From assembly GCA_039630345.1 (NCBI GenBank), contig JBCNVD010000008.1, forward strand, positions 1-64,000: 64,000 nt of DNA. The letters run 5' to 3'. Below are positions 30,417-36,167 of this stretch, piece by piece. Position 1 is the first letter of the stretch. Each line of letters begins with the position of its first letter. The stretch comes from Aquificaceae bacterium (GTDB lineage Bacteria > Aquificota > Aquificia > Aquificales > Aquificaceae). A program made the position numbers and the translations under genes. The notes under the pieces were generated by a model. That model was given only the letters and a program-made list of their open reading frames with translations, ran no database searches and was not told the origin of the DNA.

Positions 30417-31982
30417 ATGGGCGATTTTGAAAAGCTCTTGCAGGAGACAACACCTCTTAGAGAGCTAAAGAGAGGAAATGTAGTAAGGTGCAAGGTTGTA
30501 AAGGTTGAAGACAAGCTAATTTATGTTGACCTTGGTTACAAGGTTGAGGGTATAATACCGCGCGAAGAACTCCCAGAGGTAAAGCCCGGCGATGAGATAA
30601 AGGCTGTCATATTGAAATTTAGCAGAGGTGGTTCCCCAATTCTCTCTTACAAAAAGTATATTGAAAGCAAGTTATACGCTCTCTTAAAGACGGCTAAAGA
30701 GAAAAACAAATTAATTACCGGAACTGTTTTATCCGCAGAGAAAGATGGATATTGGGTTGATATAAGTGGCTTGAGAGCCTTTTTGCCAGTTGCTGATGCC
30801 GCCAAAGGATTAAAGGTCGGCAAGAAAGTTGTTGCTAATGTCCAGGAACTCCAAGAAACAGGCAACGGTTTAGTAGTTAGGCTAAGTCAGAAGGAATACA
30901 TAAAATCTATTGAGAAAAAGCGAGCTGAAGAAGTAATTGAAAATATCAAAGTTGGAGACATACTGGAAGCAAAGGTTATAAAGGTAGACCCAGAAAAAGG
31001 TATCACCCTTCTAATAAAAGGAGCTCTCAGGGTTTTTGTGCCAGTAGAAGAAATAAGCTGGAACAAAAATGCCGATGTTTCAAGGCTGGTGAAGCTAGGT
31101 CAAAGATTAAATGTCAAGATAAAGAGAATACCAAAAGATAAGCAATTTGTTTTTGCAAGCATTAGAGAGACCCAAGAGCACCCCTGGGAGCGTGCAAAAA
31201 AGACCATCTACAAAGGTGCTACCCTGCAGGTAAAAGTTCTTGAACATCTTGAAAAAGGGCTTTTGCTGTCTGTTATGGAGGGCGTTGAGGGCTTTGTGCC
31301 AAAAGATGAAATCTCCTATGATGGCACTATTCCTCAGAAAGGTTCCAAGGTTAATGCTTTGGTGCTTGAGTTTGATCCAGAGCGAAGAAAGCTCGTTTTG
31401 AGCCTAAAGAGACTCTTACCAAAGCCTTGGGAAGAATACCTTAAGCTAAATCCGGCTGGCACAAGAATAAAAGGTAAAGTTTTCAAAATAGAGGGCTCAA
31501 AGGCGTTTGTTGAGCTAACCAGCGGGGTTCAGGGGGTGATTCAGCGGTCAGACATATCATGGATTAAGTCAGTCAAAATAGAGGATGTTCTGGAGCTTAA
31601 TAAAGAATACGAGTTTATGGTGCTGGGTCTTGATGGAAAGTATGTAAAACTCGGTGTTAAACAGCTAAGTGAAAACCCGCTCGACCTTATATTCAAAAAG
31701 TACAAAGTTGGCGATAAAGTTACTCTAAAAGTTAAAGCCATTCATAGCTTTGGGGCATTTTTGCAGTTTGAAGAGGGTTTAGATGGTCTTTTACCTATCT
31801 CGGAAATTCCAAAAGGCACAAAGCTCCAGGAAAAGCAAGAGGTTGAGGTAAGGATAATAGAGCTAAGTCAGGAGAAAATCACTCTCAGTATGAAAGAAGC
31901 AGAGCCCCAGGAAGAAACTAGCACATCTTCTGGGGACAAAGGCTTTACTCTTGGCGACCTGTTTAAGAAGATAAAAATATGA
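30417..31982 (+). CDS. rpsA: 30S ribosomal protein S1
   Basis: Multiple S1 OB repeats, C-terminal FTLGDL; TATAAT and GGAGG upstream. Confidence 0.88.
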   Translation: MGDFEKLLQETTPLRELKRGNVVRCKVVKVEDKLIYVDLGYKVEGIIPREELPEVKPGDEIKAVILKFSRGGSPILSYKKYIESKLYALLKTAKEKNKLITGTVLSAEKDGYWVDISGLRAFLPVADAAKGLKVGKKVVANVQELQETGNGLVVRLSQKEYIKSIEKKRAEEVIENIKVGDILEAKVIKVDPEKGITLLIKGALRVFVPVEEISWNKNADVSRLVKLGQRLNVKIKRIPKDKQFVFASIRETQEHPWERAKKTIYKGATLQVKVLEHLEKGLLLSVMEGVEGFVPKDEISYDGTIPQKGSKVNALVLEFDPERRKLVLSLKRLLPKPWEEYLKLNPAGTRIKGKVFKIEGSKAFVELTSGVQGVIQRSDISWIKSVKIEDVLELNKEYEFMVLGLDGKYVKLGVKQLSENPLDLIFKKYKVGDKVTLKVKAIHSFGAFLQFEEGLDGLLPISEIPKGTKLQEKQEVEVRIIELSQEKITLSMKEAEPQEETSTSSGDKGFTLGDLFKKIKI

Positions 31983-32227
31983 AAAAAGAAATCCTCCTGG
32001 AGAGGATTTGTGAAAGGACGAATATTTCCAAATCAAGAGCCAACCAGATGGCTAACTTTATACTCATAAAAATTAAAGATGCGCTTCATGAGAGAAATGC
32101 TGTAAAGCTGGCTGGTTTTGGGAGTTTTCGCATAAAGACAAACGGCAGTTATTACAGGGTTTCTTTTAAACCAAGCAGGATGCTTCTTGTTAGGTTGAAC
32201 TCTGAAAGTAAGGCAAATAAAATCTGA
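31979..32227 (+). CDS. HU/IHF-family DNA-binding protein (short arm)
   Basis: VKLAGFGSF, VSFKPS. Confidence 0.8.
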   Translation: MKKEILLERICERTNISKSRANQMANFILIKIKDALHERNAVKLAGFGSFRIKTNGSYYRVSFKPSRMLLVRLNSESKANKI

Positions 32228-32235
32228 TAGTCAAA

Positions 32236-32308
32236 CGGGGTGTGGCGCAGGCGGTAGCGCGCTGGCATGGGGGGCCAGAGGTCACGGGTTCAAGTCCCGT
32301 CACCCCGA
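32236..32308 (+). tRNA. tRNA-Pro(GGG), no encoded CCA
   Basis: Acceptor CGGGGTG/CACCCCG, anticodon arm CTGGC-ATGGGGG-GCCAG, T arm GGTTCAAGTCC. Confidence 0.95.
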
Positions 32309-32337
32309 GTTATGATTATTTTAAAGGAGGACATTAA

Positions 32338-32610
32338 ATGGCTTTGCCAAAAGAGGTTAAGCAGAGAATTATCGAGACTTTTAGAAAGCACGAGCGAGAT
32401 ACTGGCTCAAGTGAGACGCAAATTGCCCTGCTTACTGAAAGGATAGCAAGACTTACAGAGCATTTAAAGAAAAACAAGAAAGATATTCACTCAAGGCGCG
32501 GACTTATTGCAATAATTCACGCAAGGAGAAAACATCTTGAATACTTAAAGAGGCGGGACTATCAGAGCTATTTGAACATAGTAAAGCGACTTAATCTAAA
32601 GGTTAAGTGA
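32338..32610 (+). CDS. rpsO: 30S ribosomal protein S15
   Basis: DTGSSETQIALLT, HLKKNKKDIHSRRGL; AAGGAGG SD. Confidence 0.97.
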   Translation: MALPKEVKQRIIETFRKHERDTGSSETQIALLTERIARLTEHLKKNKKDIHSRRGLIAIIHARRKHLEYLKRRDYQSYLNIVKRLNLKVK

Positions 32611-34667
32611 TGAAGAGGAGTTTCAGAATTGCAAACTCCACGATAGAAGTGGAGGTCGGTCAACTTGCAAAGCTCGCGGACGGCTCAGTTGTCGTAAAGC
32701 AGGGGGATACTGCTGTTTTGGTAACAGCGGTGGTTTCGCAAGAACCCTCCAGCGGTGTGGACTTTGTTCCCCTTACAGTTGATTATAGAGAGCAGTCATC
32801 CTCCTGGGGTAAAATTCCGGGTGGTTTTGTAAAGCGCGAGGGTAAACCAACCGATAGGGAAGTTCTGGTATCAAGACTTATAGACAGACCTATAAGACCT
32901 CTTTTTCCCGAGGGGTTTTTTAACGAGGTTGTTATCACTGCGCTTTTACTTTCGGCGGACGATAAATTCGACCCTGATGTGCTTTGTATAACCGGTGCCT
33001 CTTTGGCTCTTGAGATTTCAAAAATACCTTTTGAAGGTCCTGTTGCGGGAGTAAGGGTTTGTCAGGTTGATGGGCAGTTTGTTGCAAATCCGACATATCA
33101 GGAGAGACAGAGAGCGACCCTTGATATGGTAATTGCCGCAAGTTTTGACTCTATCATTATGGTCGAAGGGGGCTCAAAGGAAGTTTCAGAAGAGACCCTT
33201 CTTTCTGCTCTATCTTTCGGTCACGAAGCTGTGAGGGAATGTCTTGAGGTTCAAAAAGAGATTAGCAGGGAAATTGGCGCTCAAAAAATGACATTTGAGA
33301 GTATTGAGCTGGATAGAGAAATTCAGGAGAGGCTAATTAATAGCTGTGAAAGTGCAATACTGGAATCTATGCAAATTTCTGATAAAAAAGAGAGAAAAGC
33401 TGTTGCTGCAAACGCATTAAAGGCGTTTCTTGACAGTATTGACCAGAGCCTGCACTTCAAAGCCACATATCAGTTTAAAAAACTATCAAGCCAGCTGATG
33501 CGCCAGCAGATACTCAAAACCCGCAAAAGAATAGACGGGCGCTCTCCAGAGGAGATAAGACCTATTGAGATCAAAATACACCCCTTTGAAAGACCGCATG
33601 GAAGTGCAATCTTTACCCGTGGGCAGACCCAGGCTTTTGCAACTGCTACTTTAGGCTCTCCTGAAGAGGCTCAAATGGTAGAGAGCATACACGAAGGCGA
33701 GACCGCAAAGCGCTTTATGCTCCATTATAACTTTCCGCCTTTTTCTTCAGGGGAAGCAAAGCCATGGGGTCCACCAAGGCGCAGGGAGATAGGTCATGGA
33801 GCTCTTGCAGAGCGAGCTCTTGAGCCTTTGATTCCACCTGAGTCTGAGTTCCCATACATAATAAGGGTCGTTTCAAATATCCTTGAGTCAAATGGCTCTA
33901 CTTCTATGGCTACTGTTTGTGCTGGCTCTTTGGCGCTATTTGATGCGGGAGTGCCTCTAAAGCGCCATGTTGCGGGTATTGCGATGGGTCTTATTATCCA
34001 GGGGGATGATTTTGTTGTTCTTTCGGATATTTTAGGGGACGAAGACCAGCTTGGGGATATGGATTTTAAAGTTGCAGGGACAGAAGTTGGCATAACGAGT
34101 TTTCAGATGGATATAAAAGTCAAAGGGGTAACAAAGGAGATACTAAAAAGAGCTCTAATGCAGGCAAGAGATGGAAGGCTTCACATAATAGAGCTTATGA
34201 AAGCCGCTATTTCAAAGCCCAGAGAGCAGGTATCTCAATATGCGCCCATTATAGAGCAAATGATTATTCCAGAAGATAAAGCCACTGTGGTTATAGGACC
34301 GGGTGGTAAAAACGTAAAAGACTTTCGTGATAGACTCGGGGTTTCTGTCTGGATTCACGAAGGTGGCAGGGTTACTCTTACATCAACCAATAGAGAAGCT
34401 ATCTCAAAGGTTCGTAGCATCATAGAGTCGCTTACTTTAGACCTTGAGATCGGAAAAATCTATGTAGGCAAAGTTACCAGGGTTGAACCCTATGGGGTTT
34501 TTGTAGAGGTCTTGCCCGGCAAGGTTGGGCTTTTGCACATTAGCAAGATAGACGGCGGTATAAAAGACGCAAGGGGCAGATTCAATGTCGGTGATGAGTT
34601 GCCAGTAAGAGTCATTGAAGTAGACGACCAGGGCAGGGCAAAACTTGCCGGCGTAGCTCAGAGGTAG
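32607..34667 (+). CDS. pnp: Polyribonucleotide nucleotidyltransferase
   Basis: RLIDRPIRPLF, RREIGHG, ESNGSTSMA, GDMDFKVAG, KH and S1 domains. Confidence 0.97.
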   Translation: MMKRSFRIANSTIEVEVGQLAKLADGSVVVKQGDTAVLVTAVVSQEPSSGVDFVPLTVDYREQSSSWGKIPGGFVKREGKPTDREVLVSRLIDRPIRPLFPEGFFNEVVITALLLSADDKFDPDVLCITGASLALEISKIPFEGPVAGVRVCQVDGQFVANPTYQERQRATLDMVIAASFDSIIMVEGGSKEVSEETLLSALSFGHEAVRECLEVQKEISREIGAQKMTFESIELDREIQERLINSCESAILESMQISDKKERKAVAANALKAFLDSIDQSLHFKATYQFKKLSSQLMRQQILKTRKRIDGRSPEEIRPIEIKIHPFERPHGSAIFTRGQTQAFATATLGSPEEAQMVESIHEGETAKRFMLHYNFPPFSSGEAKPWGPPRRREIGHGALAERALEPLIPPESEFPYIIRVVSNILESNGSTSMATVCAGSLALFDAGVPLKRHVAGIAMGLIIQGDDFVVLSDILGDEDQLGDMDFKVAGTEVGITSFQMDIKVKGVTKEILKRALMQARDGRLHIIELMKAAISKPREQVSQYAPIIEQMIIPEDKATVVIGPGGKNVKDFRDRLGVSVWIHEGGRVTLTSTNREAISKVRSIIESLTLDLEIGKIYVGKVTRVEPYGVFVEVLPGKVGLLHISKIDGGIKDARGRFNVGDELPVRVIEVDDQGRAKLAGVAQR

Positions 34668-34718
34668 AGCGAGGCACTCGTAATGCCTAGGTCGTGGGTT
34701 CAAGTCCCACCGCCGGCT
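34647..34718 (+). tRNA. tRNA-Thr(CGT), no encoded CCA; overlaps the last 21 nt of pnp
   Basis: Acceptor GCCGGCG/CGCCGGC, anticodon arm AGGCA-CTCGTAA-TGCCT, T arm GGTTCAAGTCC. Confidence 0.95.
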
Positions 34719-34726
34719 AAAAGAAG

Positions 34727-35170
34727 ATGATAGTAAAGCTTAAAAGACTTCCGCACTCAGAGGGTTTGCCAGTTCCGAGTTATCAAACGCCTCTCTCTTC
34801 CGGGGTTGATCTATTCTGTGCCTTTTATGAGCCTGTTTGTATAAAGCCCATGCAGAGGATTTTGGTGCCAACAGGGATTGCAATAGAGCTTCCTGAGGGT
34901 CTTGAGGCTCAGGTTCGCCCGCGGAGCGGCCTTGCTCTAAAGCATGGCATTACCATTCTAAATTCCCCAGGGACGATAGATGCAGACTACAGAGGCGAGA
35001 TAAAGCTGATTTTAATTAATTTGGGTGAAGAAAACTTTACCATATCAAGAGGGCAAAGACTTGCCCAGCTGGTTTTTTGCACTGTATTAAGGGTTAGGTT
35101 TGAGATAGCAGACGAACTTTCGCAAACTCAAAGGGGTGAAGGGGGTTTTGGGTCCACAGGTGAGAGTTGA
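34727..35170 (+). CDS. dut: dUTP diphosphatase
   Basis: SGVDL, RPRSGLA, PGTIDADYRGE, RGEGGFGSTG. Confidence 0.97.
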   Translation: MIVKLKRLPHSEGLPVPSYQTPLSSGVDLFCAFYEPVCIKPMQRILVPTGIAIELPEGLEAQVRPRSGLALKHGITILNSPGTIDADYRGEIKLILINLGEENFTISRGQRLAQLVFCTVLRVRFEIADELSQTQRGEGGFGSTGES

Positions 35171-36167
35171 AGAGTTTGACTTTGATTTGCCTCAGGAGCT
35201 AATTGCTAAAAAGCCAGTCTATCCCAGGGATAGCTGTAGATTGATGGTGGTTTCTAGAAAAGATAGTTCTATAAAACATGCTGTTTTTAATCAGCTACCT
35301 GAGTTTTTAAATAGAGGAGACATTCTGGTTTTTAACGACACTAAAGTAATACCTGCCAGGTTTTTTGCCACAAAACCAACAGGTGGCAGGGCAGAAGTTC
35401 TCCTGACTGATTTTATAAAAGACGGTGTTTGGCACGCTCTTGTTGGGGGAAAGGGTATAAAAGAGGGTTTATCTCTGCGCGTAGCGCAGGATTTTAGTAT
35501 TTTGATAAAAAAACATCTGGAAGGACCTAAGTTTGAGGTCGAGATAATTTCTAAGAAGGCGTTTTTCGAGGCTATAGAGCTCTATGGCAGGCTTCCCCTT
35601 CCGCCTTACATTCAGAGAGAGGAAGAGCCCTCAGATAAGGAGGATTATCAGAGTATTTTCGCTAAGGTGCCCGGTTCTGTGGCTGCGCCGACAGCTTCGC
35701 TCCATTTTTCAGAGTCTTTGCTTGATGCTTTGCTAGAAAGAGACATAAAGACGGCTTTTGTGACGCTTCATATATCTTATGGGACTTTTAAGCCGGTGAA
35801 AGTTAAGGAAGTAAAAGACCACAGGGTTGATGAGGAGTTTGTCATAGTACCGGAGGAAACATCTAGGCTGTTAAAAAACACCAAAGCCCAGGGTGGACGC
35901 ATAATAGCAGTTGGAACAACTGTGGCTAGAGCTCTTGAGACTGCAGGATTTGAGAGTTTCATTGGCAGGACTGGATTATATATATATCCCGGCTATAAAT
36001 TCAGGGTTGTTGATGCTCTTATTACTAACTTCCATCTGCCAAGGTCTTCGCTCCTTTTCCTGGTGAGTGCATTTGGAGGCAAGGAATTGATTATGAGAGC
36101 TTATGAAATTGCCATAAAGGAGCGTTATAGATTTTACTCCTTTGGTGACGCAATGCTTATACTTTAA
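35160..36167 (+). CDS. queA: SAM:tRNA ribosyltransferase-isomerase
   Basis: FDFDLP, NDTKVIPAR, PLPPYI, AAPTA, TNFHLP, YRFYSFGDAM; start re-assigned to GTG 35160. Confidence 0.96.
   Translation: MRVEEFDFDLPQELIAKKPVYPRDSCRLMVVSRKDSSIKHAVFNQLPEFLNRGDILVFNDTKVIPARFFATKPTGGRAEVLLTDFIKDGVWHALVGGKGIKEGLSLRVAQDFSILIKKHLEGPKFEVEIISKKAFFEAIELYGRLPLPPYIQREEEPSDKEDYQSIFAKVPGSVAAPTASLHFSESLLDALLERDIKTAFVTLHISYGTFKPVKVKEVKDHRVDEEFVIVPEETSRLLKNTKAQGGRIIAVGTTVARALETAGFESFIGRTGLYIYPGYKFRVVDALITNFHLPRSSLLFLVSAFGGKELIMRAYEIAIKERYRFYSFGDAMLIL

Follow-up and report, generated by a model that had tools for sequence, protein, structure and literature searches.

An overlap between pnp, the gene for polynucleotide phosphorylase (PNPase), and a tRNA-Thr gene was analyzed in an Aquificaceae bacterium (contig JBCNVD010000008.1 of assembly GCA_039630345.1; 1.16 Mb, 41 contigs, 96% complete). 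Positions refer to the window, i.e., the 64,000 nucleotides (nt) of this contig that were analyzed, and all features described in it lie on the forward strand. The ribosomal protein S15 gene rpsO (32338..32610) is followed by pnp (32610..34667; 685 amino acids), the TGA stop codon of rpsO overlapping the pnp start (ATG at 32610, with a further in-frame GTG at 32607). Both genes were assigned by means of Pfam, which identified the domains RNase_PH, KH, and S1 in PNPase, the last covering residues 612–676 (about 34443–34637). The next gene is tRNA-Thr(CGU) (34647..34718), detected by ARAGORN and Rfam and encoded without CCA. It scores 73.2 bits against the Rfam family RF00005, third best among the 35 tRNAs of this genome.

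The gene pnp enters tRNA-Thr in frame. As computed from the sequence, the first nucleotide of the tRNA (34647) is position 1 of a pnp codon, and the codons GCC GGC GTA GCT CAG AGG TAG, specifying the last six residues AGVAQR and the stop, are identical with tRNA nt 1–21 (34647..34667), so that the TAG (34665–34667) occupies tRNA nt 19–21. Frame and codons were thus confirmed as described in the initial annotation. An upstream pnp stop concealed by a sequencing or assembly artefact, for which the division of the assembly into 41 contigs might speak, was excluded: a second genome of the same genus (G001) carries an identical tRNA and the same in-frame 21-nt overlap with different synonymous codons, overlaps recur in 42 further genomes, 44 in all, and also in every one of the 31 metagenome contigs in which pnp lies upstream. 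The probability left to this explanation is next to nil.

Downstream, the dUTPase gene dut (34727..35170) begins 8 nt 3' of tRNA-Thr, followed in the same direction by queA (35136..36167, likely start GTG at 35160), both assigned by Pfam. In this genus, a TNIGIDQ-like linker after the S1 domain, kept by all other genomes with the overlap, has been deleted, and the tRNA-encoded AGV (within 34647–34664) resembles the Gly-Ile/Val motif of that linker. The tRNA complement of 35 includes two tRNA-Phe(GAA) and two tRNA-Gly(GCC); Thr(TGT), Thr(GGT), Tyr, and Ile tRNAs were not found in the assembly and probably reside in unassembled operons.

Conservation and origin of the overlap

The overlap was found to be conserved wherever pnp precedes tRNA-Thr, in answer to a check named in the initial annotation. 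In total, 45 out of 71 loci examined (44 genomes, six genera) carry pnp upstream of the tRNA, and all 45 overlap; at the remaining 26 loci, the tRNA lies elsewhere (21), is Thr(TGT) (2), or is preceded by too little sequence (3). Among 41 genomes searched with PNPase, 11 featured a tRNA behind pnp, with the stop inside the tRNA in 11 of 11. A pattern search yielded 82 matches, pnp being located upstream in 33 of 47 named records and in 31 of 35 metagenome contigs and overlapping in every one of them; this set and the 71 loci come for the most part from the same organisms and do not count as independent. The same tRNA occurs in records titled Aquificaceae, Thermocrinis, Hydrogenobacter, Ca. Pampinifervens, and Aquifex. 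Records with the overlap include ones titled Thermocrinis, Hydrogenobacter, and Ca. Pampinifervens, and two titled Aquifex carry the tRNA elsewhere. Across the overlap clade, a branch of hot-spring Aquificaceae, tRNA-Thr is 94–100% identical.

The overlap measures 10 nt at 34 of the 45 loci, 44 nt at seven, 21 nt at two, and 45 nt and 1 nt at one locus each. All three reading frames are used, with unrelated tail peptides. In a quick PNPase tree of 70 rows, from which one short row and rows without a long match were omitted, the 41 rows with the overlap formed a single clade with a value of 97 in the Shimodaira–Hasegawa-like approximate likelihood ratio test (SH-aLRT), the only support measure available for this tree; the PNPase of the studied genome sits on a long branch. 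As read from the tree, the arrangement arose once. The tree also implies that the 10-nt overlap, the widespread and basal state, was ancestral and was followed by three frame shifts. Because pnp is directly followed by dut, with no tRNA in between, at most Aquificaceae outgroup loci, the tRNA is likely to have entered at the stop of pnp.

The position of the stop is readily explained by the tRNA itself. The near-invariant nucleotides U8-A9-G10 provide a TAG at tRNA positions 8–10 in 137 of 150 tRNAs, and an open reading frame (ORF) entering a tRNA in one of the three frames would stop after 10 nt in 136 of 150. Since a ready stop is supplied in this way, the commonest overlap needs no selection for regulation.

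Some further observations concern the collected loci. The record L092, titled 'Acidobacteria bacterium', features an Aquificaceae-type pnp/tRNA-Thr junction, and its title is probably wrong. Multiple copies of the locus within one assembly (L130–L132 in G094; L103 and L116 in G104) suggest mixed-strain bins. PNPases of several outgroup genera (L011–L015, L018, L020–L022) carry a duplicated S1 domain, compared to a single one in the overlap genomes.

Transcription and processing of tRNA-Thr

HARP (PF08745), a form of RNase P made of protein alone, was identified in this genome and in 24 of 24 family relatives. No RNase P RNA turned up in any of these genomes, but it was found in seven out of eight members of the sister family, in agreement with the distribution given in PMC4227106. 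Moreover, tmRNA (transfer-messenger RNA) and SmpB are both encoded in the studied genome. The assumptions that HARP serves as the RNase P of the family and that a rescue system for non-stop mRNAs is available are therefore in line with the gene content. A cut by HARP at tRNA +1 would yield a stop-less pnp mRNA, and cleavage of a substrate with a 50-nt leader in vitro is described for HARP in PMC12217051.

Promoter signals were evaluated with a −10 matrix derived from the leaders of 101 stand-alone tRNAs (leave-one-out), the cut-off being the 95th percentile of the coding background. This cut-off was exceeded by 92% of the 101 leaders and by 15 of the 21 Thr(CGT) genes located elsewhere, but by only 2 of 44 tRNA-Thr genes behind pnp; the gene studied here scores −5.8, and no promoter signal of its own was seen. 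No conserved promoter was found within 1500 nt of pnp, no site being common to more than 12% of 41 loci, and a strict −35/−10 scan of pnp returned only four scattered sites, all more than 800 nt away from the tRNA. As positive controls, the matrix recovered a strong −10 signal 30–50 nt upstream of rpsO at 40 of 41 overlap loci as well as a TTGACA-17-TAAAAT site within ispE. The lack of a separate tRNA promoter in the pnp tail, as initially stated, held in three scans with working controls. Given no promoter signal in pnp while the rpsO promoter is found, tRNA-Thr is likely made from the rpsO-pnp transcript, with no promoter of its own. In the window, the candidate −10 hexamer of the rpsO-pnp-tRNA-dut operon is TATGAT (32311..32316; matrix score 4.5).

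Alternatively, most of the tRNA could be transcribed from an internal or non-sigma70 promoter that escaped detection, or be released from decay fragments left after RNase E/G cuts pnp upstream; intact pnp mRNA would then rarely be cut by HARP, and the conflict between the two genes would be nominal. In favor of this, internal promoters do exist in the family, as in ispE; the strict scan, which recovered the rpsO promoter at 0 of 41 loci, is not fully sensitive; and scores above 6.3 are seen at 11 of 41 loci in the final 400 nt of pnp, versus 2 of 41 in a control stretch. However, these 11 sites are scattered and none is shared beyond the 12% of loci given above, the best −10 score within the last 600 nt of pnp in this genome is 3.2, and the matrix does detect the rpsO and ispE promoters. 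We regard such an origin of the tRNA as rather unlikely.

The nucleotide preceding tRNA-Thr is an A at 43 of the 45 pnp junctions, across all three frames, the exceptions being the studied genome (T at 34646) and G001 (C). A at −1 is the family norm (39, 36, and 38 of 43 tRNAs in three genomes), in contrast to 6 of 30 and 10 of 28 tRNAs in two relatives with RNase P RNA. Since A-1 is conserved in 43 of 45 loci and is preferred by HARP according to PMC12439589, the comparison suggests that the pnp/tRNA junction is kept as a processing site.

These data also bear on the idea that tRNA-Thr(CGU) is a near-silent passenger that is rarely produced, with Thr(UGU) reading ACG in its place. This idea would be consistent with the minor codon, the backup isoacceptor, and, in this genus, the non-A at −1 together with a predicted hairpin that could sequester the cleavage site. 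Against it, the identity of the tRNA within the clade, its score of 73 bits, and an A-1 kept inside pnp codons in three frames indicate purifying selection on tRNA processing, so that a silent tRNA appears very improbable. The hairpin (34632..34649; nt −15 to +3) pairs the pnp tail with tRNA nt 1–3 and was predicted for this genome, is not conserved, and depends on the folding temperature; it weakens at 65–75 °C with short sequence context and is a post hoc observation.

RNA reads were also considered. Nine runs were listed, four of which were mapped on L112 and four on L066. The former mapping yielded one flat contig and 16 reads, the latter 82 reads from a 90–99% identical relative in X6, mostly sense to pnp and dut. 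On L066, the depth was 0.18 in the bin containing the last 210 nt of pnp, compared to 1.8–9 in the pnp body and 1.1–2.7 in tRNA/dut. This dip fits a cut followed by 3' decay and equally a drop-out of divergent reads, and it was not used as evidence.

The bracketing of rpsO-pnp by two tRNAs, as pointed out in the initial annotation, is present in this window: tRNA-Pro(GGG) (32236..32308; ARAGORN) lies upstream of rpsO, the −10-like TATGAT being located between them. It is not a conserved trait, since tRNA-Pro precedes rpsO in none of nine other overlap genomes with sufficient flank. A predicted sigma70 promoter of its own (TTGAAC-17-TAAAAT, 32195..32223; 9/12 matches) is situated in the 3' end of an ihfB-like gene of the HU/IHF family (31979..32227; PF00216). 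Its −10 element lies at −18, the usual spacing of tRNA promoters in this genome group, and the number of such sites in the region corresponds to chance. The position of tRNA-Pro is likely incidental. As tRNA-Arg, tRNA-Leu, or a divergent tRNA-Thr precedes rpsO in 5 of 30 non-overlap loci, tRNAs land there sporadically.

Related overlaps and their interpretation

The arrangement is not specific for PNPase, as the same packing was encountered at ispE/tRNA-Gln, at rpmG/tRNA-Trp, and at sporadic genes. tRNA-Gln(TTG), the only Gln tRNA in three of three complete genomes, follows ispE at 47 of 50 loci and overlaps it at all 47, by 10 nt in 38 cases and with the whole tRNA inside the ORF in nine. In these nested cases (L357, L361, L362, L370–L375), the ispE stop lies 89–92 nt after tRNA +1, giving a tail of about 30 residues; a canonical tRNA is thereby nested much as selC is in selB. 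The ispE codons (Leu-Thr ... Asp-Lys-Ile) carry a near-consensus TTGACA-17-TAAAAT, often TG-extended, at 44 of the 47 loci with tRNA-Gln (L343–L392), with an exact TTGACA in 41 genomes; in the studied genome, the copy on contig C13 is located about 237 nt before tRNA-Gln. This site was not seen at three ispE loci lacking a downstream tRNA-Gln. The indispensable tRNA-Gln is thus equipped with a promoter-like site in ispE, whereas the minor Thr(CGU) has none in pnp.

The distance between rpmG and tRNA-Trp in 21 Aquificaceae is −1 nt in nine, 0 in two, +1 in seven, and 13–15 nt in three cases, and ranges from 2 to 15 nt in eight members of the sister family. In nine of the 21 rpmG genes, as well as in pnp at L126 and L324, the stop reads TA|G with the G being tRNA +1; after cutting, a UA would remain, which, as a matter of speculation, A-tailing could complete to UAA as in mitochondria. 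Counting ORFs of at least 100 codons plus rpmG, tRNAs overlapping a gene amount to 6 of 43 in G066, 5 of 43 in G097, 3–4 of 43 in G075, and 3 of 35 in this genome. Two genomes of the family with RNase P RNA show 1 of 30 (18 nt) and 0 of 28, two edge loci being skipped, and two HARP-only outgroup genomes show 1 of 30 and 0 of 30, so the link of the overlaps to HARP is only suggestive.

Taken together, the overlap is probably a tolerated by-product of operon packing, in which excision of the tRNA ends the life of the mRNA, and not a dedicated switch. The tRNA arrived once at the pnp stop, as the tree shows, its U8-A9-G10 providing the TAG of the ancestral 10-nt overlap, and later indels shifted the stop to other TAGs of the tRNA. 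We infer that the rpsO-pnp-tRNA-dut transcript is translated first and later cut by HARP at 34647, that the stop-less upstream piece is then degraded, like secG mRNA after removal of leuU, and that ribosomes remaining on it are rescued by tmRNA, the cost of stop-less pnp mRNA being tolerated rather than used. The proposal that each transcript yields either PNPase or tRNA-Thr was too strict, because translation may precede the cut. Thr(UGU) can read ACG by wobble. It is present in three of three complete genomes, and ACG accounts for 1432 of 12,989 Thr codons; excision may be affordable because Thr(CGU) is such a minor, backed-up isoacceptor.

Several points weigh against this interpretation. 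A stop wholly upstream of the tRNA was regained in no genome, despite three frame shifts and two stop gains, both of which (in G100 and in contig L324, the latter outside the tree) produced TA|G with one base still shared with the tRNA. This could reflect selection for the overlap and is the main fact favoring it, although few independent events are involved. Furthermore, this genus lacks an A at −1, and its cut site is predicted to be covered by a hairpin, a hint of local tuning. In the E. coli case, PNPase itself destroys the upstream fragment, so a loop exists by construction. Finally, no read end at tRNA +1 appeared in the RNA data, the 82 reads being too few and no end cluster being listed.

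The opposing explanation is a selected feedback between translation, tRNA processing, and PNPase, as suggested initially. Ribosomes terminating within the tRNA would keep it unfolded, and a drop in translation would lead to HARP cleavage, tmRNA tagging of the last PNPase chains, and degradation by PNPase of its own message, so that the supply of PNPase would depend on translation and tRNA processing. In addition to the missing upstream stop at 45 of 45 loci, this would fit the lack of an internal promoter in pnp, unlike ispE, the presence of all required enzymes in the genome, and the example of arfA, in which cut non-stop mRNAs are regulatory (review PMC3985003). On the other hand, no sign of selection was detected: the anatomy recurs at unrelated housekeeping genes, the depth varies from 1 to 45 nt with three frames tolerated, the stop is explained by the invariant tRNA motif, and outgroup genera manage without an overlap. 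Nor is a competing fold conserved, the acceptor-stem probability being 0.73 for native sequences versus 0.69 for synonymous shuffles at 37 °C and 0.85 versus 0.81 at 70 °C; a conserved competing hairpin was rejected, as the lowest tenth of the shuffles contained only 3 of the 45 loci at 37 °C and 5 of them at 70 °C, which equals chance. Sensing of ACG codons near the end of pnp was likewise discarded, with ACG making up 9 of 71 Thr codons in the last 40 pnp codons versus 147 of 1114. We therefore judge a selected feedback to be unlikely.

The broadest version, equally doubtful, would be a family-wide set of translation-gated cleavage switches. Ribosomes ending in tRNA-Thr would shield it from HARP, and a fall in translation would free the tRNA, destroy the pnp template, and tag nascent PNPase; the principle would be reused at ispE/tRNA-Gln and rpmG/tRNA-Trp, with UA|G ends perhaps A-tailed to UAA. 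If true, the main exoribonuclease would be subject to a 3'-end autoregulatory loop.

The arrangement is not undescribed in kind. Mukai (2021; PMC8124441) described tRNA-Sec within selB as the first such nesting in bacteria and proposed that selB/selC processing makes a non-stop mRNA, protein and tRNA being alternatives; the same either/or model was thus already in print. In both systems, the upstream gene ends within or past a tRNA on the same strand, an arrangement conserved across a lineage (here 45 of 45 loci in one clade). However, SelB is the dedicated factor of tRNA-Sec, whereas PNPase, judged by its Pfam domains, is not Thr-specific, the same being true for ispE/Gln and rpmG/Trp, and some selB lineages regained a stop, with no clean stop being seen in Aquificaceae pnp. 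The Aquificaceae cases also differ in involving canonical tRNAs, the core genes pnp, ispE, and rpmG, HARP-only thermophiles, and three frames.

For E. coli secG-leuU, one RNase P cut frees the tRNA, and secG mRNA undergoes fast decay, mostly through the action of PNPase and poly(A) polymerase (Mohanty and Kushner, PMC2241853). The tRNA likewise lies behind a protein gene and is transcribed from the promoter of that gene, which for pnp is predicted from sequence. In contrast, secG retains its stop and 14 nt, whereas a cut in pnp would remove the stop and 0–14 sense codons, and the cut mRNA encodes PNPase itself. In arfA, an RNase III site upstream of the stop gives rise to a non-stop mRNA and a tmRNA-tagged product, a case of proven regulation (PMC3985003). 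An endonuclease site before the stop, predicted in the case of pnp, and the presence of tmRNA and SmpB are common to both, but the nuclease here would be HARP acting on a tRNA, and any regulatory role is hypothetical.

In mitochondria, tRNA punctuation means that excision of tRNAs defines mRNA ends, with protein-only RNase P performing the cuts. The initial annotation's comparison is apt insofar as excision would set mRNA ends and shared nucleotides force alternative processing by a protein-only RNase P. Nucleotides shared between tRNAs and coding sequences, with alternative processing, are known from Armadillidium mitochondria, as relayed in PMC8124441. By contrast, tRNAs do not mark most Aquificaceae junctions, since 92% of the 101 stand-alone leaders have a −10 signal and 3–6 of 35–43 tRNAs overlap a gene. 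A-tailing, moreover, cannot restore a loss of 10–45 nt (21 nt here); in terms of geometry, it could work only for UA|G ends.

No account of the Aquificaceae pnp, ispE, and rpmG overlaps was found in a literature search that lacked most subscription papers and supplements; the supplements of PMC4227106 and PMC12439589, showing Aquificales tRNA contexts, might mention them. Throughout this clade, free-living bacteria keep canonical tRNAs, their sole tRNA-Gln among them, joined to the stops of core genes, with complete nesting in some lineages. The either/or model becomes testable in a group whose HARP is biochemically characterized, according to PMC12217051 and PMC12439589, with natural variants of 1, 10, 21, 44, and 45 nt and the contrast between ispE, with an internal promoter-like site, and pnp, without one. 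A neutral overlap would serve as a gauge of the amount of non-stop mRNA that a cell can bear, and a regulatory one would connect RNase P, trans-translation, and RNA decay in a new way.

Apart from these recurrent cases, sporadic tRNA overlaps were detected at lpxK, pepA, a SpoVG-like gene, an amidohydrolase, and a class IV aminotransferase, some with a −10 signal of their own. In G097, the ends of the amidohydrolase (L425:1527-2945) and class IV aminotransferase (L427:1507-2361) ORFs enclose the entire tRNA-Pro(CGG) and tRNA-Leu(TAA), respectively. On contigs C4, C33, and C37 of the studied genome, a gapA-like stop is flush with tRNA-Pro(TGG) (gap 0), a 633-codon ORF shares 1 nt with tRNA-Ala(CGC), and gaps of 2–3 nt precede tRNA-Pro(CGG) and tRNA-Ser(CGA).

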